A stretch of DNA of 17,537 nucleotides from Candidatus Jordarchaeales archaeon (GTDB lineage: Archaea > Asgardarchaeota > Jordiarchaeia > Jordiarchaeales > Freyrarchaeaceae). The stretch is from assembly GCA_038858525.1 (NCBI GenBank), contig JAWCFL010000033.1:1-17537 (forward strand). The letters are read 5' to 3'. A program made the position numbers and the translations under genes. A model generated the notes under the pieces. It worked only from the letters and a program-made list of their open reading frames with translations. It was not told the origin of the DNA and ran no database searches. Shown here piece after piece: positions 3,167 to 17,537 of the stretch. Position 1 is the first letter of the stretch. Each line of letters opens with the position of its first letter.

Positions 3167-4201
3167 GTGCCGGGTTTGATTCTTGAGGTTTCGACTCATG
3201 GGTGTAGGGTTGGGCGTAGGGGTAGGCTGGTTAGGGTTACGCTTAATGGTGAGGTTTTGAGTGAGGTCCCCGTCTCTAAGCTTAGTGAGGTTATTGTTTC
3301 GGGTAGAGTTTCGTTTTCGAGCGAGGCTGTTCAGCTTTTGGCTGAGAATGGTGTTCCTGTCCTTTTCATGTGTGGTTGGAGGCCTGTTGCTTTGCTTCAC
3401 GGGTTCTTTATGCATGGGACTGTTTTGACTAGGAGGGAGCAGATGGCTGCTTACGACGATGAAAGGGGTGTTCATTTGGCTAAGGGGTTTGTTAGGGGTG
3501 GGCTTGTGAATAAGGCTCAGCTTCTCCGCTACTTTGCGGCTAGTAGGGGTAGGAGTGATGGGGAGCTTGCTGGTGCTCTTGAGGCTGCCGCCTCAGAGAT
3601 TTTCGGGGTTGCTTGTGAGGTTGAGAGGGTTGAGGGTGGGAGTGTTGACGATGTGAGGTTTGAGGTTATGGGTTTGGAGGCTGAGGGGACTAGGGTTTAC
3701 TATGAGGCTTTGCGCCTGCTGCTCCCGGAGGGGGTTGGGTTTGAGAGGCGTGAGAGGAGGCCTCCTAGGGACCCTGTGAATGCCGCTTTGAGTTATGGCT
3801 ACACTATGCTTAACGGGAGGTGCCTGTCGGCTATCGCTGCCTGTGGCCTTGAGCCTTACGCCGGCTTTCTTCACGCTGACAGGTCTGGTAAGCCATCATT
3901 GATGCTTGACCTTTCGGAGGAGTTTAGGCAGCCCGCCGTTGATAGGGCTGTGGTTTCACTTTTCTCTAAGGGAGCTCTTGGAAGGGAGGATTTCGGCTTT
4001 GAGGAGGGCAGGGTTGTCCTTGGGGGGAAAGGTAAGGAGGTGCTGCTGAGGGCTTTGAACGAGAGGTTTAGGGGGGAGGTGAGGGTTGACGGGGGCTCTG
4101 CTCCCCTGGAGAACGTTATTTTCAGGCAGGCTAGGATGATAGCGCGCTACCTTCTGGGTAAGGCTCCGAAGTATGAGCCCTACGTTTTCACTTGGCATTA
4201 G
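3167..4201 (+). CDS. cas1: CRISPR-associated integrase Cas1
   Basis: GLEAEG...YY, RRERRPPRDPVNAALSYGY, GFLHADRSGKPSLMLDLSEEFRQ (catalytic E/H/E); 344 aa. Confidence 0.97.
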   Translation: MPGLILEVSTHGCRVGRRGRLVRVTLNGEVLSEVPVSKLSEVIVSGRVSFSSEAVQLLAENGVPVLFMCGWRPVALLHGFFMHGTVLTRREQMAAYDDERGVHLAKGFVRGGLVNKAQLLRYFAASRGRSDGELAGALEAAASEIFGVACEVERVEGGSVDDVRFEVMGLEAEGTRVYYEALRLLLPEGVGFERRERRPPRDPVNAALSYGYTMLNGRCLSAIAACGLEPYAGFLHADRSGKPSLMLDLSEEFRQPAVDRAVVSLFSKGALGREDFGFEEGRVVLGGKGKEVLLRALNERFRGEVRVDGGSAPLENVIFRQARMIARYLLGKAPKYEPYVFTWH

Positions 4202-4209
4202 GGGGGTTT

Positions 4210-4491
4210 GTGGTGTTCGTGGTTGTCTATGATATTACGGATGACAGGTTGAGGGAGCGTGTGGCTTTGACCTTGATGGAGTACGGGTTCATCAGGATGC
4301 AGAAGAGCGTCTTCGTTGGTGATGTTAGTAGGAATGTGGCTGAGATGCTGGCTATAGAGCTCAGGAGGCTGGTTGAGGGGAACCCTTGCGATGTGAGGAT
4401 TATCCCTGTTTGCATGAGGTGCTATGAGGACGTTATCATCGTTGCGAGGCTGGTGGAGGCGGCTGAGGCCGAGGAGGTGGTGGTGACTTGA
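4210..4491 (+). CDS. cas2: CRISPR-associated protein Cas2
   Basis: VVYDITDDRLRERVA...YGF.RMQKSVF.G; about 93 aa. GTG 4210 after a G-rich RBS is preferred to the track's TTG 4192. Confidence 0.95.
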   Translation: MVFVVVYDITDDRLRERVALTLMEYGFIRMQKSVFVGDVSRNVAEMLAIELRRLVEGNPCDVRIIPVCMRCYEDVIIVARLVEAAEAEEVVVT

Positions 4492-5039
4492 GCGTGTTCT
4501 TCACCGCTGAGGACGTGAGGCAGTACGCTTACTGCAAAAGGAAGGTCTATTTCAGGTATGTTTTGAGGGCTAGGGTTAAGCCGACGGTTAAGATGGAGCG
4601 TGGGAGGGAGGAGCACTTGAAGCTTGAGTCCAGAAGGAAGAGGAGTGGCGGGGCGTACTTCAGCATGTATCTCTTCTCAGAGAGGCTTGGGCTTGCGGGC
4701 GTAGTGGACTATCTCAAGTATGAGGGGGGTGAGGTTATCCCTGTCGAGGTTAAGTTTGGGAGGTGGGAGAGGGTATATTCAGGGCACTACCTTCAGCTTG
4801 CGGCGCACGCCCTCCTGTTGGAGGAGCACTTCGGATTGGATGTGGTGCGGGGGGTTATAGAGTATCCTGACGGAGAAGTGGTGAGGGAAGTGAAGATAAC
4901 TGAGAAAGTTAAGCTTAAGGTTATTGAGGTGTTGTCGAGGATCAGGAGAATTGTCCTTGAGGAGGAGGTGCCGCCGCCATCGCTGAACGCTTCGAAGTGT
5001 GAGGGGTGTGAAGCGTATAGGGTCTGTAGGGGGTGCTAG
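4488..5039 (+). CDS. cas4: CRISPR-associated nuclease Cas4
   Basis: QYAYCKRK, GREEH, GVVD...PVEVK (PD-(D/E)xK), QLAAHALLLE and C-terminal CxxCxxxxxC Fe-S ligands; TTGA overlap with the cas2 stop. Confidence 0.95.
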   Translation: MSVFFTAEDVRQYAYCKRKVYFRYVLRARVKPTVKMERGREEHLKLESRRKRSGGAYFSMYLFSERLGLAGVVDYLKYEGGEVIPVEVKFGRWERVYSGHYLQLAAHALLLEEHFGLDVVRGVIEYPDGEVVREVKITEKVKLKVIEVLSRIRRIVLEEEVPPPSLNASKCEGCEAYRVCRGC

Positions 5040-5090
5040 TTGAATTTGGGGTTTGATGTTCATTACAATGTTTTTGAGCAAAATTTCTTC

Positions 5091-5106
5091 AAAAAAATTT
5101 TTAAGG
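5091..5106 (+). promoter_or_regulatory. Candidate BRE-TATA of the interference operon
   Basis: A7-TTTTTAAG in the AT-rich gap after cas4; RBS GAGGTGGGG precedes ATG 5147. Confidence 0.5.
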
Positions 5107-5146
5107 ATAAAATCTGGAAATTTGATGTGTGGTGAGGTGGGGTTTT

Positions 5147-5500
5147 ATGGGTTCGCATGTCTCTCAGGAGCTTATTAAGGCTGTTAAGGACGACGCTGTG
5201 AAGCGTGTAGCTGAGTTATTCCATTATTTGGTTGTTCATTGTGAGGTTAAGCAGTATTATTACGAGTTGAAGTTTGTGCGTAGTGGGTCAAGGCTTCTTG
5301 AACTTATCGGGAAAGCTCTCAAGGACCTGGGTGTGATTGGAAGAGATGAGGAGCGTAGGAGGGAGATCGAGGAACTGCGTCTTCCTAGTAAGGAGGATGA
5401 GTCTATGGTTTTGGAGTATTACAGTTCGTTGGGGCTGGATTTTATCAGGGCTCTATCGGGGATGGTTGTTGCTAGTTGTCGGCTTTGCTATAAAGCATAG
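5147..5500 (+). CDS. csa5: Type I-A Cascade small subunit Csa5 (Cas11)
   Basis: About 117 aa helical protein directly upstream of cas7, with a Csa5-like LPSKED motif; the position matches the csa5-cas7-cas5-cas3'-cas3''-cas8a2 order of archaeal I-A loci. Confidence 0.75.
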   Translation: MGSHVSQELIKAVKDDAVKRVAELFHYLVVHCEVKQYYYELKFVRSGSRLLELIGKALKDLGVIGRDEERRREIEELRLPSKEDESMVLEYYSSLGLDFIRALSGMVVASCRLCYKA

Positions 5501-5513
5501 TGAGGTGAGATAG

Positions 5514-6506
5514 ATGTATGTTGGTGTGGCGGTTAAGGTTCTCTTGAATATGCATGACCTTAACAACGAGAGGGCTGAGGAGATAAGGAGGGTTCCAGTT
5601 ATTTATCGTGGAAAGGATGGTGGATGGACGGTTTTTGAGGAGGCTGTTGCGGTTAGCGGGCTCATGATCAAGCGGTGGCACTTTGCGAACATGGTTGAAC
5701 TGGGAGGTGAAGTGTGTTTCTGTGATTTGTGCAAGAACTTAGAGGCTATTCGTATACCTAGTGAGAAAAGCGGGAAGGCTCGTAGCGAGTTTGAAATAAT
5801 TAAGGATTGTGCCGGAGAGGACGTTCACGGTTTCCTGAGGGCGAACCCTGTTTTAAGAAGGGAGTCAATGGTGAAGTTTTCATGGATGCTGCCATTGTTT
5901 AACGATGAAGTTGTCGAGGCTTTTGGTCTACCTACACCATTCAGAGTCGTGCAGCATACCAGAAATATCCGTGAAATAACTGAGAACGCTGCTAAAAGGA
6001 TGAATGTAGATTTGGATGAGTTAAGAAGGTGGCAGATGCCTTATCCGAGATCTTATGCCGCAGGAGTTTACGGTTTTGTTTCACTACTTGACCTTAAGCA
6101 TATAGGCTACTCTTTCACTGATAAGAAGGAGATTAACGAGAAAGAGAGGAGGGAGCGCCGGAAGGTGGCTCTTCAGGCGTATATTCCATTGGTGACTGGT
6201 TCTTGCGGTGCGTCCTTGGCGAGGGCGTTGCCTGTGGCGGACGTTTTGGAGGTGGTAACCGTGCTGAGCGATAAGGTGATACCTGCCCCAATACATCCAA
6301 TTTACTCGGAGTACGTTGAGGAGAATGCTAGGCTTTATCATAGTGTGTCGAAGGCTATGAGGAGCAATGTGACGATGTATGTGTGGTCTAAGGAAAAAAG
6401 GTATAGTGAGGGGAAAAGTGACTCATTTGAGTTGAAAATGGTGGAGAAGGCCGCCGATGGGTTTAGCGAGATCATTGGGCTTCTAGAGAGGGTAGGAGAG
6501 GTATAA
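5514..6506 (+). CDS. cas7: Type I-A Cascade backbone Cas7 (Csa2/DevR family)
   Basis: LNMHDLNNE, IRRVPV, AVSGLMIKRWHF, CxxC, EDVHGFL, RRESMVKFSW; RBS GAGGTGA upstream. Confidence 0.93.
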   Translation: MYVGVAVKVLLNMHDLNNERAEEIRRVPVIYRGKDGGWTVFEEAVAVSGLMIKRWHFANMVELGGEVCFCDLCKNLEAIRIPSEKSGKARSEFEIIKDCAGEDVHGFLRANPVLRRESMVKFSWMLPLFNDEVVEAFGLPTPFRVVQHTRNIREITENAAKRMNVDLDELRRWQMPYPRSYAAGVYGFVSLLDLKHIGYSFTDKKEINEKERRERRKVALQAYIPLVTGSCGASLARALPVADVLEVVTVLSDKVIPAPIHPIYSEYVEENARLYHSVSKAMRSNVTMYVWSKEKRYSEGKSDSFELKMVEKAADGFSEIIGLLERVGEV

Positions 6507-6507
6507 G

Positions 6508-7416
6508 ATGGAAGTATTCAGTGTTAGGGTTTTCCTCCCTCTTTTTCACGTTAGATACGAGGATGCTTGGGGGATTAGGTTGTCTCCGAGGTTGCCTCCT
6601 CCACGCACGATTCTTGGAGCGTTGGCTAAGGGTGTGGGGGTAGTACTGGGAGTGGAGGGGGGTGAGGTGCCAATTGGAGAGAAGCGGGCGCGTGAACTTC
6701 TCATGGATGCGGTGGAGTCTTGCTCTTACGGGTTTGTGAGGCCCTTATCCCCGCTGGTTAAGACGTCGCAGATTCTGCGTGTTGTGCCGGCGATCGAGCA
6801 AAAAAGGGTGACGTCTGACATTTTTAAGCTTAAAGGTGGAGGACTCGTTAATCAAGCCGCTAAGTTTCATGACGCCTTTAAGCATGACGTAGTGGTTTCC
6901 GGCGAGATGGAGTTTGTTTATGCTTTAAGCCTTGAGGAACTTAACGATGACATCGCTGGTAGCTTTGGCGGGGTTGGTCGGGAGGAGGTTCTTTCGGCTT
7001 TAAGGATGATTGACAGGGTTGGCTCGACAGAGTCACTGTGTGGGGTGTTGTCTGTTAAGCACGTAGGTTTGAAGGAGGTTGGTCCGAGGGCTACCGTCAA
7101 CACGTATGTTCCGGTAGAGGACCCTGCTAAGTGGGTGGAGCCGGTGCATGCTGCAACTCGGGGGTACCTTATTGAGCCACTATACCCTAACTTGCGCGTT
7201 GTAGGCATGAAAAGAGTTGAAGACGTGAAGTCTATGAAGATTAATTTTTTGCTTCCAATATACTGTAGCGAGGTGCGCAGGGGTAGGGAGGTGTTTGAGC
7301 CGACAGAGGTTTTAGTGGATTGCGTTAATGGTTATAGTGTGTATTCGTTGCATGGGACTGGTGATGGCGAGACTAGGATAGTTCTTCCTAGGGGGGAGCT
7401 TGATGGACTGGTATGA
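6508..7416 (+). CDS. cas5: Type I-A Cas5 (Cas5a)
   Basis: N-terminal RAMP motif LPPPRTILGALA, glycine loop DRVGSTES; 1 bp after cas7. Confidence 0.88.
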   Translation: MEVFSVRVFLPLFHVRYEDAWGIRLSPRLPPPRTILGALAKGVGVVLGVEGGEVPIGEKRARELLMDAVESCSYGFVRPLSPLVKTSQILRVVPAIEQKRVTSDIFKLKGGGLVNQAAKFHDAFKHDVVVSGEMEFVYALSLEELNDDIAGSFGGVGREEVLSALRMIDRVGSTESLCGVLSVKHVGLKEVGPRATVNTYVPVEDPAKWVEPVHAATRGYLIEPLYPNLRVVGMKRVEDVKSMKINFLLPIYCSEVRRGREVFEPTEVLVDCVNGYSVYSLHGTGDGETRIVLPRGELDGLV

Positions 7417-9343
7417 TGTTCTAAAGGAGGTTGCGAGGCATCAGGGGCGTAGGTTTGAGGAGAGGCCTCTGCAAAGGGAATTAGTTAATATTCTTCAGAG
7501 GCGCTTCGAGGAGGACGAGTTAACTGTTCCTCTTCTTATACGGCTCCCATGCGGCTACGGTAAGACTCAGGTGGGGGAGGCGCCCTTCTTGGGTGAAGCC
7601 TTTACAGGTGAGTGGATCACTAGAGGTATGGTTTACACGTTGCCGACCCGCTCGCTCACAGAGCAACAGGCGGAAAGAATCCGTGCGGACGTTGAGGCCC
7701 TGTGTAGGCTTAAGTCTCTCCCGAAGTTGTCCGTAAGCGAGCTTCACGGAGAGACTGGAACTTATTTTTTCTACGACGACGTGATCGTGTCAACCTTTGA
7801 TACGTTCATTTATGCGTATGCACGAAAGGTTCGCACGGGACATCACTTGGAGTTTCCCGCGGGAACAATATCCACGTCCTATGTTGTTTTCGATGAGGCG
7901 CACATGATTCAAGACGATTACCTGTATTCTCACTTAGTAATGAATAAAGTTCTCCGCGTGCTGTCGAAGGCCGGTGTCCCCACGATAGTAATGACAGCCA
8001 CTATGCCGGATCAGATCAAGAACGTTGTGTTTGATGGTGTGAGTTACGAGGAGTATCCTCCTATTAGCCATGTTTGCTCCTCACGGCTTGGGTCATATAG
8101 GGGGGAAGTAAGGGAGGTTCATCTGCACAGGGAAGATATCAAAGATTACATATGCAGAACCCTTTCCCCTGATGCTGCTGCTAATAAGCGTATTCTCGTC
8201 GTCTGTAACACCGTGAGTAAGGCTCAAGGTGTTTACCACGAGTTGGCCGGCAGGTTTTCAGGCGGCAGTGTTAGCGGGAGAGTCATCCTGCTACATTCTC
8301 GCTATGCAAAGATTGACAGGCAACGTTGGTCTAGCACCGCCATTAAGTTAATGAAAGGCATATGTGAAAGTTGTGAAGGGAAAATGGGGTTTCCAGTTTA
8401 TCTGTCGGAGGAAGAAGGAAGGGTTTACTGCGACCGCTGCGCTACTCCAAGCGCGGAACGGGTTGATTTCGTAATTCTTGTGGCTACTCAAGTCGTCGAG
8501 GCTGGACTCGACATATCTGCAGATTGGCTATTAACGGACATGGCCCCCCTAGATGCTCTCGTTCAGAGGGCTGGGAGATGCTCGCGTTTTCCAGGTGAAA
8601 GTAATGGTAGAATTGACGTTTTCTATTATGACAAAGTGCACTTGCCCTACCAGCAGAAGCTTGTTGAAAAGGCATACGAGATACTAGAAAATGAGGACGA
8701 CAAGGGTCGAATTCGCTCTTTGACTGATTTCACGTATTCATCAGCTATGATCAACAAGAACTACGATGTTTTTAGAAGGGAAGTTTTGGGCGAACACCGC
8801 CATTTAAGGTTATATTTAGGTTACCTTGAAGGGAACGGTTTTTCAACGTTTAGCGTTGACTGGGAGCTTCTAAGGCAAATCTCGGCGCGCCCGAACGCTT
8901 TTGTCACCCTGGTTGCTTTTTCAGAGGACGAAGATATTCCGGTATGCTTTCTGAAAGAAGAAGAGGCGGATTTACGTGTCCAAGGTAGGTATAGGAGTTA
9001 CCGCTGTGTTGCGCATAAATCCGTAAAGTATCACGAGCTGCTATCTCAAATGAGAGACGAAACCATCTGTATTAATAGGGACTTTGTGTTGTCTCACTCC
9101 TTCTCGCTGGAGCGTAATTATGCGATAAGTGACAATAAACCCAAACCATTCCTTCAACATGATCTCGACGGAAAAACCGTAATGGTGGAGTTGAAACCCG
9201 TAATAGTGGATGTGGAGGGGGGGCAGCGTAAACGCGAGTGCTACTACCTTGTCAGGGAAGCCTTTTCCGGGAGAGTCGACGAGAGCAACTACCTTGTTAA
9301 CACCAAGTTTTATGATGAGAAAAAGGGTCTCGAGGCGGGTTGA
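7403..9343 (+). CDS. cas3: Cas3' SF2 helicase (split Cas3)
   Basis: LPCGYGKT (Walker A), DEAH, MTAT, LLHSRY, VATQVVEAGLDIS, LVQRAGRCSR; no HD domain. Overlaps the cas5 stop; ATG 7403 or TTG 7400. Confidence 0.96.
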   Translation: MDWYDVLKEVARHQGRRFEERPLQRELVNILQRRFEEDELTVPLLIRLPCGYGKTQVGEAPFLGEAFTGEWITRGMVYTLPTRSLTEQQAERIRADVEALCRLKSLPKLSVSELHGETGTYFFYDDVIVSTFDTFIYAYARKVRTGHHLEFPAGTISTSYVVFDEAHMIQDDYLYSHLVMNKVLRVLSKAGVPTIVMTATMPDQIKNVVFDGVSYEEYPPISHVCSSRLGSYRGEVREVHLHREDIKDYICRTLSPDAAANKRILVVCNTVSKAQGVYHELAGRFSGGSVSGRVILLHSRYAKIDRQRWSSTAIKLMKGICESCEGKMGFPVYLSEEEGRVYCDRCATPSAERVDFVILVATQVVEAGLDISADWLLTDMAPLDALVQRAGRCSRFPGESNGRIDVFYYDKVHLPYQQKLVEKAYEILENEDDKGRIRSLTDFTYSSAMINKNYDVFRREVLGEHRHLRLYLGYLEGNGFSTFSVDWELLRQISARPNAFVTLVAFSEDEDIPVCFLKEEEADLRVQGRYRSYRCVAHKSVKYHELLSQMRDETICINRDFVLSHSFSLERNYAISDNKPKPFLQHDLDGKTVMVELKPVIVDVEGGQRKRECYYLVREAFSGRVDESNYLVNTKFYDEKKGLEAG

Positions 9344-9347
9344 ACAA

Positions 9348-10169
9348 ATGACAAGATGGAGATGCGAGATGGAAAATTGCCCGTTAAGGGGGGTTAGTAA
9401 AGTTTGCGGCGACGGAAAGGATGGACCAGTAGTAGTGTCCTATCATCCCAGCAATGGAAACAAAGAATGCTACGTTAGGCATTCGGTTCTATGCTGGGAA
9501 GAGTGGAAACGTGTGTTTGACAGATATATACGCTCCATTCACCGGGTTTTCAGGAAAACATTATTTATAAATGTGGACTTGAAAGTTATAGAAAATATTT
9601 GTGGAGTTGCGGTTCTCCATCATGACGTTGGAAAGTTGTGCGCAGATTACCAGTCTGCCAGATTTTATAGGCACGAGATGATAAGCTCGTTCCTAATTCA
9701 TGATTACGTTGTTGGGATGCTGAAAAATAGCTCCCTAGACGAGGAAAAGGCGGAGCTCCTTTCTTCAATAGTCTCGGCGGCGGTATACCTTCACCATGAA
9801 GGGCTCCAGATAAGTCATGAGTACTATGAGATGAGGGCGCCTACATATGGCTATCTGCTAAACCTGTTGGCGGGGAGAGAGTTCCGCATGGTCGAGTCTT
9901 GGATGCTGATATCTTCGGAGCTTGAAAAGTACGCCTTCGGCAGGACGCTTGGTTACTTCGCGAATGTAAGCTCGGTCAGCGGTTATGAGGTAACTAACGT
10001 GTTGGGCTCCGTCATAACGCTTGTGGATGGAGCCCCGGACCCGCTCCCGCTCCGCCTCGCCGTGGCTTCCATCCTTCACCCGATAACGATAACAGATAAC
10101 CTTGCATCGCAGAAGAGGGGAGGAAAACCAAGCTTGTTAAGCTCGTTTTTGGGGGTTACGGAGAGATGA
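9348..10169 (+). CDS. cas3'': Cas3'' HD nuclease (split Cas3)
   Basis: RHS...LHHDVGK...RHEMIS...LHHEGL HD-domain motifs. Start likely ATG 9348 or 9369 rather than the track's 9210, which overlaps cas3' by 134 bp. Confidence 0.9.
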   Translation: MTRWRCEMENCPLRGVSKVCGDGKDGPVVVSYHPSNGNKECYVRHSVLCWEEWKRVFDRYIRSIHRVFRKTLFINVDLKVIENICGVAVLHHDVGKLCADYQSARFYRHEMISSFLIHDYVVGMLKNSSLDEEKAELLSSIVSAAVYLHHEGLQISHEYYEMRAPTYGYLLNLLAGREFRMVESWMLISSELEKYAFGRTLGYFANVSSVSGYEVTNVLGSVITLVDGAPDPLPLRLAVASILHPITITDNLASQKRGGKPSLLSSFLGVTER

Positions 10170-11344
10170 GTAACGTTGTGAGTATTCCATCAACGAGAGA
10201 CCGAGTTCTTGATACGCTGCTCGTGTACGCGATCATGGACATTGGGTTAGAAGTGGACCCAGACATAAGGTTCAGGGTGACACTGGGACAAGAAAACTTC
10301 ATTACCGTGAATTATAGTAATTCGAACTTAGAAAGGGATATGCTTTCCAAACTGAAAGATAAGTCGAAAAGGTTCTCTATAGCTGACAGGATGAATTTCT
10401 TTTTGAACATGGGAAACACCTCTTGGAAAGTTGACAAGTGGGTGTGCACTTACTGCACCGGGAAAAATGATTGTAACCGTAATGGGGATTGCGGGAAAAC
10501 AAATATTTTGGCTTATGCCGTGCTTCACGGTTACATCAAATCTATGGGAAGTTTTTCTCTTCCGTGGAGTCCCAAATCCATAACGAAAGCAGGATCAAGG
10601 GGGAGGAGGTGTGCTACGCTGAGTGTTGGTGTTTCGCCGTACTGGTCGAAGGGGATAAGAAGGTGGGACATGGGGGAATGGAGGGAGGACTCGACCACCG
10701 TTGAGCATTCAGTTCTGCCATTTGCACTTTACGGATTAGGCAATTACACCATAAATGTGGTGACTGGGAACATGTTGATTCGGTTGATGTTTTCCCCACC
10801 TGTCGGTAGGGAGCTTTCTCATTTAGAAGCCATAAAGCTTCTAACGCTTGTGAGGCGAGTGGTCAACTCCATTTACATCGAAATGCAGAGATTTTTCCGA
10901 TTAGAGTTTCCTTCAATGGTCCTTCCGCTTTCCATGCTGTGCTTTCTAGATGTTCCAGCTATTTACATGTTGCATCAATTTTCTCCATCGATCCTCCTAA
11001 TTAGTTATGACTTATATAGGAATTCTCCGAAGAATCCACGCGGCTATGAAGAGTTGAGTTTGGCAGACGCATTGGAGTTTTACAGGCAGATAGGCGAATC
11101 ATTCTGGGACTTTAAAAAGATGATAATTGACCTGGTCAGCTTGGCGGAGAGGGAGGAATATAGGTCTCGGGTTTTTGATATACTTATAAAGTTGGCTTTA
11201 GGAATTAAGAACAAGGAGCCATCTTACTTTAACGATGCGCTTCTTAACATTCAATCGTTAAGGAAAGAAGTTAATGTTAAGTTTTTCGTTATAGGAAGAG
11301 AGGAGATGCTAGCTGCTCATAGGGCCCTAAGGACCTCTCATTGA
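10166..11344 (+). CDS. cas8a2: Type I-A large subunit Cas8a2 (Csa4-like)
   Basis: 392 aa, ATGA-coupled to cas3''; N-terminal P..D..LDTLLVY and SPYWSKG resemble Csa4-type motifs. The call rests mainly on operon position and size. Confidence 0.72.
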   Translation: MSNVVSIPSTRDRVLDTLLVYAIMDIGLEVDPDIRFRVTLGQENFITVNYSNSNLERDMLSKLKDKSKRFSIADRMNFFLNMGNTSWKVDKWVCTYCTGKNDCNRNGDCGKTNILAYAVLHGYIKSMGSFSLPWSPKSITKAGSRGRRCATLSVGVSPYWSKGIRRWDMGEWREDSTTVEHSVLPFALYGLGNYTINVVTGNMLIRLMFSPPVGRELSHLEAIKLLTLVRRVVNSIYIEMQRFFRLEFPSMVLPLSMLCFLDVPAIYMLHQFSPSILLISYDLYRNSPKNPRGYEELSLADALEFYRQIGESFWDFKKMIIDLVSLAEREEYRSRVFDILIKLALGIKNKEPSYFNDALLNIQSLRKEVNVKFFVIGREEMLAAHRALRTSH

Positions 11345-11453
11345 ACTTTCTACTTGGAGTTTTCGTTCAACACTGAACGTTCACATTAGGTAGTTGAATA
11401 GCTAGGAAAATTGTTTAATTGATGGTTTTTGCTTTTTACTTGAGGGATGAAGC

Positions 11454-12386
11454 GTGGGGATTATAAGTTCATTTACTCTAAATTTGGCGGTTGATGGCCC
11501 CATTACGTTTCAGGGGTTTTCAGGTTTTTCTGCTTTTAACTTATTTTACGAGTTAGTTCGCTCTATTGATCCGGGATTAGTTGAGGGGCTTCGTTCCTTT
11601 AGGGGGCCTGCACCGTGGGCTGCAACTCCTTTCATATCCGGGGAAAGCTCAAGAGTTATTTATCGGAAGCTTAATGTTCCATCAACTGTTAGCGTAACAT
11701 TCACTATGATGGATGAAGCGGTTTTGGATGCTTTTAGGAAAGCTATTCTATCTTCAAGACTTAAGCTGGAATTAGCTGGCGTTAAATTTAAGCTCCTCAG
11801 CATTACATTTAGTGTTTTAAGGTTTTCTGAGATAGCCTCTAGCGTGGACCCTCTTCCAACGAAGTTTGCCGTAGGTTTCATAACGCCGACAGCGTTTAGG
11901 CGCTCGGTCCACGACTGCTGCCCAACTTGCCCTCACTATGAAGCGTACTTGAGGAACCAGGAAAAGAAATTGACTGATAAACCATGCGAACACGTGATGC
12001 CTCATGGAAATACGCTAGTTCCTTTACCGCTTCCCTCACTAATGTTTCGGAACCTTGCAAGGATCTGGTCGTCTTTCTCGGACACGATGAAGGATGTTTG
12101 GAGCGCAGTTAAGTGGGCTGAAGAAGCTATTATCGTCACTGGTTTCCCTAGAGGAATAAGAACACGTAGGCTCTGCGAGGATGCCGCAACAAATAGGTGG
12201 ATAACAGGCTTCACGGGAAAAGTAAATTTTGCTGTTAAAGAAAATGCATACGACGAGAGGCATGCGAAAACGGTGGCAGCACTCTTAAGGATGGCGGAAC
12301 GTACTAATACAGGAGTGAGAAGAACTGCGGGATTAGGCATGATAAAATACTTTGAGCCTCTTGCCTCAGCAGAACATATTAAGTGA
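11454..12386 (+). CDS. cas6: Cas6 crRNA-processing endoribonuclease with a Cys/His-rich insertion
   Basis: F.TPTAFR, GF.GKV.F and the C-terminal Gly-rich loop TGVRRTAGLGMI; RBS GAGGGA 6 nt upstream of GTG. Confidence 0.92.
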   Translation: MGIISSFTLNLAVDGPITFQGFSGFSAFNLFYELVRSIDPGLVEGLRSFRGPAPWAATPFISGESSRVIYRKLNVPSTVSVTFTMMDEAVLDAFRKAILSSRLKLELAGVKFKLLSITFSVLRFSEIASSVDPLPTKFAVGFITPTAFRRSVHDCCPTCPHYEAYLRNQEKKLTDKPCEHVMPHGNTLVPLPLPSLMFRNLARIWSSFSDTMKDVWSAVKWAEEAIIVTGFPRGIRTRRLCEDAATNRWITGFTGKVNFAVKENAYDERHAKTVAALLRMAERTNTGVRRTAGLGMIKYFEPLASAEHIK

Positions 12387-12480: not shown

Positions 12481-12996
12481 TTATGCGTTCAGAGGAAAGA
12501 CTGGCCGGATTTTTTCGAGGACAAAGAGGTGGACCATTTCTTCCGGCTTGTCTTTCTCGACTAGGACCACTAGTTTTCCTTGGAGCGCTTTGGATGGTGT
12601 CCTGGGGGATGCTTTTTCATATTTAGTTAGTGCGAATTTGTGGCGTATTTCGTGGGGCACATTGTTTGGGTCGCTGGGTCTGAAGAGGCGTAGCTGGCCT
12701 TTCTCTATGTAGGATATTCCTAGTGGGTGGTAGTATTTTTGCGTGTCTTTGGATTCTTGGAAAACGTCGGTTTTTCTTTTTATTTGGTCGTGGAGCCAAG
12801 TGGTTTTTTCCGTTGATATAGGCTTAACGCTTGCTTTTCCCGTTTTCTCGGAGTATTGAACGTTAAACAGCCATTTTCCGCTAGTTTCATCTTCAACTTT
12901 GTAGGCATAGATGATCCCTTGTAGTAATTTTCGTAGTCCTAAGTCGTACCATTCGCCTTCTTGGCTTTTTAAGAGGATTATGTTTAACTTTTTCAT
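12481..12996 (-). CDS. Hypothetical protein, 171 aa, no family recognised
   Basis: ATG-started ORF with globular-looking composition, no competing long ORF, and a good BRE-TATA upstream. Confidence 0.65.
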   Translation of the reverse strand: MKKLNIILLKSQEGEWYDLGLRKLLQGIIYAYKVEDETSGKWLFNVQYSEKTGKASVKPISTEKTTWLHDQIKRKTDVFQESKDTQKYYHPLGISYIEKGQLRLFRPSDPNNVPHEIRHKFALTKYEKASPRTPSKALQGKLVVLVEKDKPEEMVHLFVLEKIRPVFPLNA

Positions 12997-13047: not shown

Positions 13048-13586
13048 TTTAATAAATTTCCCATGATACTATTGTTGGGATGATAGATCATGTGAGAGGT
13101 GACGGGAAGCTGGTTAAAGGGTCGCTTGTTAAATGGGCAGAGATGCTTAAGAGGAAGTAGGGAAAGTTGATGAGTAAAACGATCTATAAGCATGGTTTCG
13201 CTCATTCTTATCAATATTCTGCGAGGATTTGGTGTCGATTTATTAGTTCTCCGATGATTTCTGTTTTTTGGATTTGTTGAAGATAAATTCGGACGCTATA
13301 AAGGGAAAAGTAGAGTTAAAGTGTTCTTAATTACCCTTTTTTAGTTTAGTTGTAGTGGAATGATAAAGGTTTCAAGTCGGAGATGAAAAAGAAAAAGGCG
13401 GCGTGATTTTTGTGGTTGAAATGCTTTTATTGATGAACTTTTATACAGTTAAGATGGTGAAATGTCTATAGTGGTGTTTGATGTTTTATTTCGGAGGGAC
13501 GGCTGCCTTTATGTGGAGTTGTGGTTGTTCTGTGTGGTTTGGGTTTTTGTTGCTGTTGCGAATGTTCTGTTTTGTGGGAGGTGTTT

Positions 13587-15074
13587 GTGTTGGATGTTTG
13601 GGTTGCTTCTGTTAGTGTTTCTTCTCCTGCGGTGTTTAATGGTTTGTGGTTTGTTGCTGAGCGGTATGGTTTTGTTCCTGATCGTGTTTACCTGCTTTGG
13701 AATGAGAGTGTTGTTGGTCAGCTTGAGGCGGTTAGGAGGGCTATAGGGTTTTTGGGGGAGACTTATGGTAGGAGGGTTGAGGTTGTTGCTGATGAGAGTG
13801 TTAGGGTGTATGAGGAGGATATTGATGGCTTCAGGAGGAAGGTTGGCGAGCTTTTGAAGTCTCTTGGTGGTGTGGGGAGGGTTGTGGTTGATATTACTCC
13901 TGGGCGGAAGTTCATGTCTTCTTTGATGCTTGCCGCTGGGATGGAGCATGCTGACCACGTGGTTTACCTTTTTCTTAGGGATTTGGGCTACGCTGACAGT
14001 TACCTGTTTCACATACCGTTTTCGCTTCAGAAGCTGGTTGATTTGAGGGCGCTGTTTAAGGGGGGCGCTCCTCTTTCGGGTGAGCGGGTGAAGGGTGAGC
14101 GGGTGACGGTGAAGGTTTGTAGGAGGGATCTTATGGTTTTTTTGAACTCACTTTATCTTGACGGGCGGCTTGTTCATGATGTTAGGTTAGGGGGGGTCAA
14201 GTTGGGGAGGTTTACCCTTAAGCTTGAGGGGAATGAGGTGTCCTTCAACGTTGAGTGTAATGATTTTTGCGACGAGACTCATGGGGATTTTTCGTTGGTG
14301 AGGGAGGTTATCTTAGCGTCGGGCATGGCTCGCTTCTCAAACGAGGAGGAAGCGTTTGGAGAGGTGCTAAACGAGATTAAGCGCAGCAGTAGGACTGTTT
14401 ACGTTGGCTTCGACACCAACTCCCTTGTTTTTAGGGTGCCATCGAGGTTTCTGGAATACGTGAGAAGGGCGTATGCTGGAATGAGGGAGAGGGAGCCAAG
14501 CATTAACTTTGTTATCTCTGGAGAGGTGATTAACGAGGTTTCACGTAACGTGAACCAGAAGTTGCCCGTCGACCCTAAACTTGGAGACTACTCGAACCAG
14601 CTGACACCCAGGGCTAGGCTTTTCATGGTGGCGCAGGGTGAGAGACGATTGCTGGATGATCGCAACTCGGAGGTTGTTGAGGCAGGAGGCGACGCTAGGG
14701 GAGATGAAAAGATAGCCTTGGAGTACAAGGAGTTCGCCTCCAAGAAGGGAAATGTGGTGGTGTTCACTACGGACAGTGCGGCCTACATGGCCATGGATAG
14801 CTTCAGAAGGCAGGGATTGATACCCGTCAAGCTTAATCTCCCAAGTATGCAGGGCCCATTCAGGGGGAGGTGGGAGGACGCGAGAGACTTGCTATATTAC
14901 CTGTCGGTTGTTCTTGGAGAGATCAATGTTTCTCCTTATAGGTTTAGGGGTGTGTGGAGGGGTAAGAGCCCGGATGACTGGAGGCGTGAGCTGGTGGAGC
15001 TTTCCAACTTCGAGTATTCCCGTATCCTGGAGTTGTCTAGCAAGTTGCTGGCTGAGAAGGGAAGCCGTGGCTGA
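13587..15074 (+). CDS. CARF-PIN fusion protein (putative cyclic-oligoadenylate-responsive ribonuclease)
   Basis: N-terminal CARF: WVASVSVSSPAVFN...PDRVYLL and DITPGRKFMS (13890-13919). C-terminal PIN: VGFDTNSL (D at 14412), NEV, GDEKI, TTDS acidic tetrad. RBS GGAGGTG at 13577-13583 points to a start at GTG 13587 or TTG 13590 (~495 aa). Confidence 0.85.
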   Translation: MLDVWVASVSVSSPAVFNGLWFVAERYGFVPDRVYLLWNESVVGQLEAVRRAIGFLGETYGRRVEVVADESVRVYEEDIDGFRRKVGELLKSLGGVGRVVVDITPGRKFMSSLMLAAGMEHADHVVYLFLRDLGYADSYLFHIPFSLQKLVDLRALFKGGAPLSGERVKGERVTVKVCRRDLMVFLNSLYLDGRLVHDVRLGGVKLGRFTLKLEGNEVSFNVECNDFCDETHGDFSLVREVILASGMARFSNEEEAFGEVLNEIKRSSRTVYVGFDTNSLVFRVPSRFLEYVRRAYAGMREREPSINFVISGEVINEVSRNVNQKLPVDPKLGDYSNQLTPRARLFMVAQGERRLLDDRNSEVVEAGGDARGDEKIALEYKEFASKKGNVVVFTTDSAAYMAMDSFRRQGLIPVKLNLPSMQGPFRGRWEDARDLLYYLSVVLGEINVSPYRFRGVWRGKSPDDWRRELVELSNFEYSRILELSSKLLAEKGSRG

Positions 15075-15089
15075 AGGGATTATTTGAGC

Positions 15090-15337
15090 TGTTCATATTT
15101 TTAAGAGCCCTAATACACGCGCTCACTTTTCCTGCCTGCTTGTCTGTTCCTTCGAGAAGAAAGAGGAGTTCTCCTTCATCTCCTTAATGGAGGAGGATAG
15201 CAAATTAAAATTTATCTATTCTGGAACTGCTGAGGAAAGTAATCGTCATGTCTTTCAATTTCTATGTTTGAGGAGTTTTTGCTTGGCTCCTCTCTGCTCA
15301 GGAGTTCGATTAGGTAGTGTAGTTGTATTCCTCTCAC
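15090..15337 (-). pseudogene. Possible heavily decayed VapC-like (PIN) toxin remnant
   Basis: GTGA overlap with the antitoxin stop at 15337-15334; fragments NTT/YLIELL (like DTxYLIxLL) and DKQAGKVSACIRALK lie in different frames with stops. Weak. Confidence 0.3.
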
Positions 15338-15857: not shown

Positions 15858-16799
15858 GTGCTGCAGGTGGATTTGCTTTGGGTGTATGCTATCGGTGCGA
15901 TGTTTGCCACTGCGGCTGCTAAGCAGTTGAGGAGGCTTGAGGCTGAGAAGGAGAAGGTCAGGGAGGTGCTCATGTGGCCGGCGCCCTTCGGGAACGTTTA
16001 CTTCGCCCTTCTTTTGCTATACTTGTCGGTGATCTTTGTTCCTGAGGCGGTTTGGCTTACGTGGAACTTTCCGCAGTGGGAGACCATGCATGTGTGGTCG
16101 AGCCTCGAGGAGATCCCGACTCACCTAGTGACCCTCTTCATTGTGGGGGACGTGGTTATCGCCGTGCTGGGTTACTGGGTTGCCTATAGGCTAATAGCTA
16201 AGGGCAGGGAGTTTTGGGCTCACCTCCAGTGGGTTGCGGGCTACTTCGCCTTCTTCCTCGTGCTGCTCCACGGCTGGGATGGGTTAGCATGGCAGAGGTT
16301 CACCTGGGACTCGACGGTCGTGTTTCCATTGAAGATGCCTGTGAGCACAGTGATGATTCTCTTAGCTGTCGGTGAGGCTGCAGCGGCGCTGCGTCCAGTT
16401 CTCGTGTCATGGTGGCTTTACTCTCTCTGGATTCCAGGGAAAACAATGGCTGTTTCCTTCGCGACGAGCAACGTGGCGGTGACGCTTTACGCCATGGCTG
16501 CTCCAACCATAGCTCCGCTGCTCGTAGGCGGGTACATCGCCCTAAGGGACGGGCACGTGAAGACGGGGATGGGTGAAAGGGAAGCTTCTTCCCTATCGGT
16601 GAGGGGTGTGCTGACTTACCTGCTCGGAGTGCTTGCAGCCTTCATTCTCGCTGGCGTGACGACTGCCGTGTCGAACCTCGTAACTGGGATGACGTGGTAC
16701 TTCTTGTGGGTTAGTGTGGGTGAGGTGGCGACTCTAGCTTCGACAGTCACCACGAAAGTGGCCCCGCTCCCCGTGGGGTTTGCAGCAGTTCCCGAATAG
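15858..16799 (+). CDS. Uncharacterised multi-pass membrane protein
   Basis: Seven or more hydrophobic segments; RBS AGGAGGG upstream of GTG; motifs QVD..W.Y, FPQWETMH and HGWD..WQRF recall a conserved hypothetical membrane family of unknown function. Confidence 0.75.
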   Translation: MLQVDLLWVYAIGAMFATAAAKQLRRLEAEKEKVREVLMWPAPFGNVYFALLLLYLSVIFVPEAVWLTWNFPQWETMHVWSSLEEIPTHLVTLFIVGDVVIAVLGYWVAYRLIAKGREFWAHLQWVAGYFAFFLVLLHGWDGLAWQRFTWDSTVVFPLKMPVSTVMILLAVGEAAAALRPVLVSWWLYSLWIPGKTMAVSFATSNVAVTLYAMAAPTIAPLLVGGYIALRDGHVKTGMGEREASSLSVRGVLTYLLGVLAAFILAGVTTAVSNLVTGMTWYFLWVSVGEVATLASTVTTKVAPLPVGFAAVPE

Positions 16800-16804
16800 A
16801 TAAC

Positions 16805-16812
16805 TTTATATA
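16805..16812 (+). promoter_or_regulatory. TATA box of the IS607 tnpA (leaderless-type spacing)
   Basis: TTTATATA 21-24 nt upstream of ATG 16833/16836. Confidence 0.5.
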
Positions 16813-16832
16813 ACACTTCTTAACATTTTTGT

Positions 16833-17451
16833 ATGATGATTGAGAGGTTGCTGACGCTCAGCGAAGCCTGCGAGAGGTTGAGCATCCACCCAAATACGCT
16901 TAAAAAATGGGATAAACAAGGTAAAATTAGAGTTGCTAGGACCGTTGGTGGTAGGAGGAGGATACCTGAAAGTGAAGTTGAACGTTTGATGGACATCGCT
17001 AAAACAGACACGCCCAAAAAGCCGTGATTTATACCAGAGTTCCCCCCATGACCAGAAACAGAAGGAGGATTTAGAGAGGCAAAAGCAAAGTTTACTGAGT
17101 CACGCCAAATCTAAAATGAAGTTATCGCGATCTTAGAGGACGCGGCAAGCAGACTCAACGAGAACAGAAAGCCCCTGGACAGAGTTTTTGATATAGTTGA
17201 GAAAAGAGAGGTAGGAGCCGTCATAATAGCTTTCAAGGATAGGCTTAAGAGGTTCGGCTTCAAACACCTAGAGCGCTACTTCCCCCCTCACAACGTAAAA
17301 ATCGAAGTCGTTAATGAGGAGCCTAAAAATGCCTATCAAGATAGAGGACCTCATCACTTTGGTTTCTAGCTTTGCAGGAAAGCTCTATGATTTGAGAAGC
17401 CACAAGTACGAGAAGGTGGTTAAGAGTGTCAAACAGCTTATTGCTGAATGA
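16833..17451 (+). pseudogene. tnpA: IS607 TnpA serine recombinase, frameshifted
   Basis: HTH LTLSEACERLSIHPNTLKKWD...GGRRRIPESE, then in shifting frames AVIYTRV-PP (for YARVSS)/[51 protein letters not shown]...LIAE*; about four frameshifts and altered catalytic-motif residues. Confidence 0.9.
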
Positions 17452-17537
17452 GACCTGCAAGTTTAAGCTCCAGCCCAACGATGAACAAGCAATCGTTCTC
17501 GAGGATCTCTTCAAGAGCTATTCCGAAATGGTTAAAG
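17441..17537 (+). CDS. tnpB: TnpB family RNA-guided nuclease, N-terminal fragment (truncated by window)
   Basis: TTG 17441 gives [32 protein letters not shown], the T.KFKL.P..EQ...L..L...Y pattern of TnpB N-termini, overlapping the tnpA stop. Confidence 0.75.

Follow-up and report, generated by a model that had tools for sequence, protein, structure and literature searches.

The CARF-PIN gene and its domains

The window analyzed here is the entire contig C33 (17,537 nt) of a Candidatus Jordarchaeales genome, which comprises 2.09 Mb in 63 contigs and is 92.7% complete. Downstream of a type I-A CRISPR-Cas cassette (3167-12386, + strand), it carries a gene at 13587-15074 (+) that combines a CARF domain, a middle domain, a PIN domain and a C-terminal domain in a single protein of 495 aa plus stop. 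This CARF-PIN gene is intact: the list of open reading frames (ORFs) and the translation give an uninterrupted frame of 495 codons with a GTG start at 13587, and a database entry of 495 aa, which is 99% identical to the CARF-PIN protein, was called from the same start. A Shine-Dalgarno-like GGAGGTG, read directly from the sequence at 13577-13583 (+), ends 3 nt before this GTG and thereby favors it over the in-frame upstream GTG at 13521.

The CARF domain (13587-14066 (+), approximately residues 1-160) is documented by profile and structure matches. In a family set of 22 members, i.e., the CARF-PIN protein and 21 full-length relatives with 33-63% identity, the Pfam profile Cas_APE2256 matched 19/22 proteins, Cas_NE0113 18/22 and Csa3_N 11/22. 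The CARF-PIN protein alone gives a sub-threshold match to Cas_APE2256 (E 0.021), but the matches among its 21 relatives make the CARF assignment firm despite this weak single-protein score. The CARF part of an AlphaFold2 model also aligns at VIA Z 13-16 with the solved CARF domains of Card1, Can2, Sis0811, Sis0455, Sso2081, Csm6, Cad1 and Csa3. The two conserved motifs typical of the Rossmann-like CARF superfamily, one behind beta1 and one of the form D-x-T-x-G-x-[RK] behind beta4, are present at residues 10-12 and 102-108: motif I is S10-V11-S12 (13614-13622 (+); consensus G-T-S in the 22-member alignment), and motif II is DITPGRK, D102-K108 (13890-13910 (+)), in which D102, T104, P105, G106, R107 and K108 are invariant in the same alignment. 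Motif I equates to G9-T10-S11 and motif II to G104-R105-K106 of the ring nuclease Crn1/Sso2081. In that enzyme, motif I positions the scissile phosphate, with Ser11 being critical, while the Arg of motif II binds cyclic tetra-adenylate (cA4) and the Lys stabilizes the cleavage intermediate (PMC10018336). Of these ring-nuclease residues, G106-R107-K108 are intact and S12 is kept, and the Gly and Thr of motif I are replaced by S10 and V11.

The AlphaFold2 model, computed on the 22-member alignment, has a predicted local distance difference test score (pLDDT) of 90.4 and a predicted TM-score (pTM) of 0.89 and shows four parts. Its best structural match is SiRe_0806 of S. islandicus, solved as apo protein (PDB 9JXW) and with cA4 (9JXX): Foldseek aligns the two at E 1.7e-17 (TM 0.59-0.73), and VIA at Z 25.4 with a root-mean-square deviation of 3.8 Å and 388 of about 410 residues aligned, spanning residues 2-494 of the model and 1-418 of the chain. 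The family profile finds 9jxw by sequence as well (E 6.8e-5), via a common DITPGRK[FY]M block. The middle domain (14067-14357 (+), approximately residues 161-257), a putative transducer with mixed beta/alpha structure in the model, lies inside the full-length alignment to 9jxw and is thus a folded domain common to SiRe_0806.

The PIN domain (14358-14846 (+), approximately residues 258-420) has an alpha/beta/alpha architecture with a conserved insert that contains R344. Its four acidic residues, D276 (14412-14414), E317 (14535-14537), D373 (14703-14705) and D396 (14772-14774), all encoded on the + strand, are 100% conserved when 65 family members from many archaeal phyla are aligned; for the comparison, 69 loci from representative genomes were retrieved. 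R344, W457, K460 and W465 are invariant across these 65 sequences, too. The last three belong to the C-terminal beta/alpha domain (14847-15071 (+), approximately residues 421-495), which is delimited by the model and by conservation. In the CARF-PIN protein, neither Pfam nor NCBIfam detected a PIN domain, and NCBIfam gave no match at all; one relative among the 22 family members matched PIN_12 at E 0.01. Because the profile libraries gave no PIN match, the fold was established from structure. The C-terminal half, folded separately (pLDDT 85), was matched by Foldseek to 3i8o, 1o4w, SMG6 and Utp23/24 (E 3e-5 to 1e-2), and a VIA-align search of approximately 48,000 representative chains yielded Z ~9-10 to 3ix7, 3i8o, 5f4h and 1o4w, and Z 6-7.5 to VapC toxins. 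The PIN fold of the predicted structure is hence confirmed independently of SiRe_0806 or any CARF protein.

An earlier reading of this stretch, for which the letters and their translations were the only source, had proposed a CARF domain with a DITPGRK motif and a PIN domain with an intact acidic tetrad in one ORF. Both proposals are borne out by the family profiles, the structure matches and the conservation described above, and so is the link that it drew between the GRK motif and ring nucleases, given motif II of Crn1/Sso2081. The middle region of about 100 aa, which it had listed as unassigned, is present at that length, but turns out to be a folded domain shared with SiRe_0806.

A homodimer, the modeling of which had been proposed as well, is predicted to be held together by the CARF domains and passes its controls: the model reaches an interaction score (ipSAE) of 0.65 vs. 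0.00 for the best control, at least 92% of the contacts are the same between runs, and the pLDDT of the partner is at least 88. Among proteins of known structure, the mark applied to such dimers is attained by 20 of 30 one-chain pairs and by 1 of 23 single chains. In the model, the interface is formed by CARF residues 76-158, and K108 is located opposite K108' on the two-fold axis. This pass may reflect the memory of similar CARF dimers that have already been solved, rather than independent evidence.

Type III systems in the same genome and beside close relatives

A whole-genome search, as suggested by the sequence-only reading, revealed three Cas10 genes in the host genome, all of them off C33. 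Contig C45 carries a complete type III-B system (cmr2, cmr3, cmr4, cmr5, a second cmr4-like gene, cmr6 and cmr1) with an adjoining 320-aa CARF gene; C49 carries a III-D-like locus with an HD-Cas10, several Csx7 and Csx10; and C50 carries a second III-B cassette, plus cas1 and cas4. The GGDD motif is present in all three Cas10 proteins. Further CARF effectors are spread through the genome (Csx1 on C29, CARF genes on C45 and C7), so that the producers and receivers of cyclic oligoadenylates (cOA) are dispersed, or at least assembled apart. The earlier statement that no Cas10 is in view therefore holds for C33 and does not hold for the genome. Assembly offers an explanation for this absence: C33 is short and ends, 2.4 kb beyond the CARF-PIN gene, in a copy of an insertion sequence (IS). 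Overlaps that would join C33 to the type III contigs were not found at its 5' end, and the matches at its 3' end are to the multi-copy IS only. As a separate observation, a Cas_APE2256-type CARF gene near a contig end, C7:65267-65652 (-), has a TAA stop inside, which could mean either a pseudogene or a split gene.

The same association recurs among close relatives. In a maximum-likelihood tree of the PIN-encoding part, which was obtained by a quick search only and of which the supported (starred) clades alone were used, the C33 protein groups with that of a metagenome-assembled genome (MAG) of the same family (59-63% identity), followed by Thermococcus and then Methanocaldococcus, with a support of 99 in the Shimodaira-Hasegawa-like approximate likelihood ratio test (SH-aLRT). 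In the same-family MAG, cas10 lies approximately 9 kb from the homologue. In Thermococcus indicus, a Cmr cassette is located 1.9 kb from it, in T. waiotapuensis a Csm cassette at 4.7 kb, and in Thermococcus sp. MAR1 a Cmr cassette plus Csx3 at 1.5 kb; in Methanocaldococcus, Methanoperedens, Freyarchaeota and Promethearchaeia, genes for repeat-associated mysterious proteins (RAMP) or cas10 are found within 0-8 kb. Among 99 Thermococcales genomes, Cas10 is present in 17 of the 18 with a full-length homologue vs. 22 of the 81 without (Fisher p 1.2e-7, a value that is descriptive only, since the relatives are not independent), and in 15 of these 18 genomes cas10 lies at most 16 kb away on the same contig.

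Within its own genus, the CARF-PIN gene was not found in three genomes that are 73-95% complete, and order-level relatives carry the CARF and PIN parts as split genes. Such a patchy distribution is expected of a mobile defense gene. With the nearest copies located in the same-family MAG and in Thermococcales, and with the gene split in order-level relatives, the distribution suggests horizontal exchange of defense genes.

Two side observations were made in these genomes. About 60 of the 99 Thermococcales genomes encode a stand-alone CARF protein of 155-175 aa that resembles the CARF part of the family (E 1e-11 to 1e-28) and could be ring-nuclease-like or an orphan sensor; many of these genomes have no Cas10. 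Moreover, at the locus of the closest relative, an RNA-ligase-like gene (L021:11578-12612 (-)) is convergent with the CARF-PIN gene, and the two may represent a pairing of RNase and RNA repair.

A putative cOA-responsive ribonuclease acting in trans

An intact gene, CARF and PIN folds with conserved residues, similarity to SiRe_0806 and co-occurrence with Cas10 are what was observed. On this basis, the C33 gene probably encodes a cOA-sensing CARF-PIN ribonuclease (RNase) that serves the three Cas10 systems elsewhere in the genome in trans. Cross-talk with a remote type III system, one of two possibilities put forward in the sequence-only reading, is thereby favored, both by the three GGDD Cas10 loci and by the clade relatives beside type III cassettes. 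For the ligand identity, the oligomeric switch, the RNA substrate and the ring-nuclease activity, we infer a scheme that leans on structure 9JXX and on the title of Wang et al. (2025), from which cA4 binding and activation would be transferred to the C33 protein by analogy. The protein would exist as a homodimer held by its CARF domains. When a type III complex meets its target RNA, a GGDD Cas10 would make cOA, most likely cA4, which would bind at the two-fold axis of the CARF dimer and contact S12 and G106-R107-K108. The signal would pass through the middle domain, and dimers would pair, as reported for the Sulfolobus enzyme; this pairing would switch on the metal-dependent PIN site formed by D276, E317, D373 and D396. 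The active PIN domain would then degrade RNA and arrest the infected cell. Finally, the CARF domain may itself cut cA4, so that the protein switches off again: since the Crn1-type ring-nuclease residues are kept, the CARF-PIN effector is possibly self-limiting, which makes it a candidate for a self-limiting PIN effector.

Several points weigh against this reading. The 17.5-kb contig itself holds neither a type III gene nor Cas10, and the immediate neighbor of the CARF-PIN gene is type I-A. In P. horikoshii-type loci, 10 nt separate the homologue from a type I cas3 upstream of it. The haloarchaeal clade, which is the largest branch of the family, gave no Cas10 palm-2 match in any of the 33 tested genomes with a split homologue. 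At the level of the protein, motif I reads S-V-S instead of G-T-S, and the sequence is just ~18% identical to SiRe_0806, so that ligand and activation mode are extrapolated. The activation study of Wang et al. (2025), which appears to concern SiRe_0806, is linked to that protein through its title, the dates and the PDB release. Lastly, the CARF-PIN protein ST0035 bound cA4 weakly and displayed no induced RNase activity (PMC6546367).

The effector function has to be weighed against a ring-nuclease function, in which the protein would mainly be an off-switch whose CARF domain degrades cA4, with the PIN domain being auxiliary or regulatory. Crn1/Sso2081 has the same GRK in motif II and the same critical Ser in motif I; after SiRe_0806, the nearest solved CARF sequences are those of the ring nucleases Sis0455 and Crn1/Sso2081 (profile E 6e-4 to 6e-3); one homologue is annotated as "CRISPR-associated ring nuclease"; and stand-alone CARF relatives of about 160 aa are common in Thermococcales. 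However, the complete conservation of the PIN tetrad and of further PIN and C-terminal residues in 65 sequences argues for a selected nuclease function, and the Sulfolobus relative is described, as far as the title of the study tells, as a cA4-activated PIN nuclease. One protein could fulfil both roles, but a predominantly ring-nuclease function is unlikely.

With three GGDD Cas10 loci in the genome and a known family of the SiRe_0806 type, the C33 gene thus appears as an ordinary ancillary gene. The sequence-only reading had named this outcome as one that would remove its point of interest, and at the level of the genome it is essentially what was found, even though C33 itself holds no type III gene; most of the clade relatives adjoin one. 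The residual novelty lies at the family level, in the coupled gene pair and the Cas10-less haloarchaea, and less at the C33 locus.

Split gene pairs and the Cas10-less haloarchaeal branch

Whether CARF and PIN are split elsewhere, and which CRISPR subtype accompanies them, had been singled out as worth tabulating. In 58 of 65 loci the family takes a two-gene form, with a CARF gene of 155-170 aa and a gene of approximately 346 aa for the middle, PIN and C-terminal domains; the middle domain thus sits in the PIN-encoding gene among the split relatives. The two genes overlap by 1-4 nt (e.g., L044:10001-10474 and 10474-11517), and the fused form is restricted, among the 65 loci, to the clade of the C33 gene and two haloarchaeal cases. 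As to the CRISPR context, the clade of the C33 gene is mostly found near type III. A programmed frameshift in the split homologues was considered and rejected, given ordinary start/stop overlaps of 1-4 nt with varying junctions in dozens of genomes. When 1.84 billion representative proteins were searched by profile, 516 cluster representatives were found at E<=1e-3, 273 of them at E<=1e-10, and these are a mix of fused, CARF-only and PIN-only proteins.

The haloarchaeal clade comprises 44 rows of the tree (SH-aLRT 100; loci L041-L093, e.g., L044:8148-11517). Whereas 8 of 10 non-halophile genomes yielded a Cas10 palm-2 match, the 33 tested haloarchaeal genomes yielded none, which implies that cOA made by Cas10 is not the sole candidate ligand across the family. 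Cas genes are not among the conserved neighbors in this clade. Instead, the CARF gene immediately follows a gene for an ADP-ribosylglycohydrolase, and HEAT-repeat, vWA, AAA_14/DUF4143, UvrD-PD-(D/E)xK and AddB-like genes recur as well. This agrees with the remark in a recent classification on Crf6, a CARF+PIN family that usually has no association with CRISPR (PMC12669027). The haloarchaeal pair of a CARF gene and an X-PIN gene may be a CRISPR-independent CARF signaling module, and this branch is a better place than C33 to seek a non-CRISPR CARF signal.

Transferred to C33, these observations would mean that the signal sensed by the CARF domain is a nucleotide from a source other than Cas10, be it the product of another cyclase or derived from ADP-ribose, in a CRISPR-independent abortive module of a defense island. 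The Cas10-negative result in 33/33 tested haloarchaeal genomes, the neighborhood without cas genes and the Crf6 remark all speak for such a module. Nevertheless, the haloarchaeal pattern does not describe the clade of the C33 gene, which is Cas10-positive and mostly cas10-adjacent (SH-aLRT 99), and the genome itself has three GGDD Cas10 loci; for C33, we consider a sensor of this kind improbable. There is an equally slim chance that the family does not depend on Cas10 and that the C33 copy, placed beside type I-A, answers the same non-Cas10 nucleotide signal. In that event, a type I locus would be linked to an abortive RNase response.

Neighborhood of the gene on the contig

The cassette upstream of the CARF-PIN gene was recognized as type I-A in the sequence-only reading, and Cas5a, Csa2 and a split Cas3'/Cas3'' bear this out. 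According to Pfam and NCBIfam matches, it contains cas1, cas2, cas4, cas7/csa2, cas5a, split cas3'/cas3'' and cas6; it further holds a Csa5-sized ORF and a Cas8a-sized ORF, which may be csa5 and cas8a. Approximately 1.2 kb separate cas6 from the CARF-PIN gene, and this interval is occupied by a divergent ORF for a hydrophilic protein of 171 aa (12481-12996 (-)) and an AT-rich spacer of 590 nt. The CARF-PIN gene is a transcription unit apart from the I-A operon. Downstream of it, a 313-aa ORF (15858-16799 (+)) with at least five hydrophobic segments probably encodes a multi-pass membrane protein. Neither this ORF nor the divergent one has a Pfam, NCBIfam or usable ESM-Atlas match.

The adjacency raises the possibility that the CARF-PIN protein is a dedicated accessory of the neighboring type I-A system and is triggered by its activity, and the near-operonic arrangement with a type I cas3 in P. 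horikoshii-type loci points in the same direction. On closer inspection, a position beside a type I cassette does recur, but inside composite type I and type III loci: in 5 of 6 Thermococcales without cas10 as a close neighbor, cas10 is still found at a distance of approximately 14-16 kb. No cyclase is known in type I systems. Together with the divergent ORF and the spacer that part the gene from cas6, and with the lack of the gene in the three same-genus genomes, this leaves a type I-A accessory very improbable; an abortive back-up to type I-A gated by another signal, the second possibility raised in the sequence-only reading, is not supported, either.

Upstream of the cassette lie two CRISPR arrays that adjoin each other and differ in their repeats: array A at 1019-1515 (30-nt repeat, period 66) and array B at 1540-1795 (repeat of ~29 nt, period 73-76). 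Elsewhere in the host genome, the repeat of array A occurs on C34 only, and that of array B was not found, i.e., it is unique to C33; no array can therefore be assigned to a given type III locus. In a Freyarchaeota chromosome, the array-A repeat was observed with at most 6 mismatches 300 nt upstream of a split CARF gene (L057:9630-9725). A decayed solitary copy of the array-B repeat lies at 15252-15280 (+), 178 nt past the stop of the CARF-PIN gene. It is identical to the consensus in 23 of 29 positions, compared to 21 in the best of 60 block shuffles, and has lost the CCCC/GGGG stem; it may be the relic of a lost array.

The 3' end of the contig is formed by the start of an IS607-like element (16800-17537 (+)), which was recognized from translations and from repeats on other contigs: a helix-turn-helix/serine-recombinase frame broken by stops is followed by the N-terminus of TnpB. 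The last 55-99 nt of C33 recur in C6, C43 and C55, and shorter pieces in C18, so that the presence of this sequence on several contigs explains the assembly break. While the decayed repeat and the IS607-like element flanking the gene, as well as its departure from the motif I consensus, would suit a decaying or inactive passenger in a rearranging defense island, the intact frame of 495 codons, the retention of all invariant family residues and the high confidence of the model make this explanation scarcely credible.

Comparison with known systems

The closest known protein, SiRe_0806, has the same order of CARF domain, middle domain, PIN domain and C-terminal part in one polypeptide and shares the DITPGRK[FY]M block. 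It differs from the CARF-PIN protein in length (429 aa vs. 495 aa, i.e., approximately 65 residues shorter), in its origin from another phylum and in motif I, which is S-V-S in the CARF-PIN protein. As cited and paraphrased in PMC13577387 and bioRxiv 10.64898/2025.12.27.695470, a recent study reports a CRISPR-associated PIN nuclease that becomes active when its dimers dimerize in response to cA4 (Wang et al., NAR 2025, gkaf744).

CARF-PIN architectures are listed in computational surveys, as the sequence-only reading had stated. The 2025 classification of CRISPR-Cas systems has three CARF+PIN families, Crf6, Crf10 and Crf11 (PMC12669027, supplementary table 2): Crf6 is assigned to CARF_m1, with the roles of sensor, effector and ring nuclease, and Crf10 and Crf11 belong to CARF_m3 and are archaea-specific (PMC12669027). 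Compared by description, the C33 protein resembles these families in being archaeal and in fusing a CARF sensor to a predicted PIN RNase. Crf6 resembles the wider CARF-PIN family also in its many members without a link to CRISPR, and its "s,e,r" label fits the ring-nuclease motifs. CARF+PIN accessory genes were already catalogued with type III cassettes by Shah et al. (2018) (PMC6546367). ST0035 of S. tokodaii and Msed_1167-type proteins, which occur with type III-A/B/D cassettes, have the same named architecture and are likened to the CARF-PIN protein by the name of the architecture only. The claim that no biochemical study of the architecture exists proved wrong, given structures 9JXW and 9JXX, the title of Wang et al. 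(2025), and the testing of ST0035 in 2018 (PMC6546367).

The ring nucleases Crn1 (Sso2081, Sis0811) and Sis0455 share with the CARF-PIN protein the Ser of motif I and the G-R-K of motif II. Unlike the CARF-PIN protein, they stand alone, with a helical insert or a winged helix-turn-helix next to the CARF domain and no nuclease effector domain; for insert residues of the Tyr133 and Lys168 type, no counterpart was identified in the CARF-PIN protein. The effectors Csx1/Csm6 (CARF-HEPN) and Can1/Can2/Card1 (CARF-PD-(D/E)xK) are alike in that a dimeric cOA sensor allosterically activates a fused nuclease, but this nuclease has a HEPN or restriction-endonuclease fold instead of a metal-dependent PIN domain. 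The activation reported for the CARF-PIN kind, assembly into a dimer of dimers, is likewise unlike that of Csx1/Csm6 and Can1/Can2/Card1.

A further resemblance exists to VapBC toxin-antitoxin systems: the PIN fold and acidic tetrad are shared, and in 58/65 loci the PIN gene is preceded by a small gene with an overlap of 1-4 nt, a layout also seen in VapBC operons, with CARF in the place of the antitoxin. The upstream partner, however, is a CARF protein and not a DNA-binding antitoxin, the PIN gene has additional middle and C-terminal domains, and in the C33 gene the CARF and PIN parts are fused. Upstream of the PIN part, no antitoxin-like DNA-binding domain was found, and the family thus falls outside the definition of VapBC. 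The CARF-PIN architecture is neither new nor unstudied, and the C33 gene is a divergent fused-gene addition to an already described archaeal family of CARF+PIN effectors.

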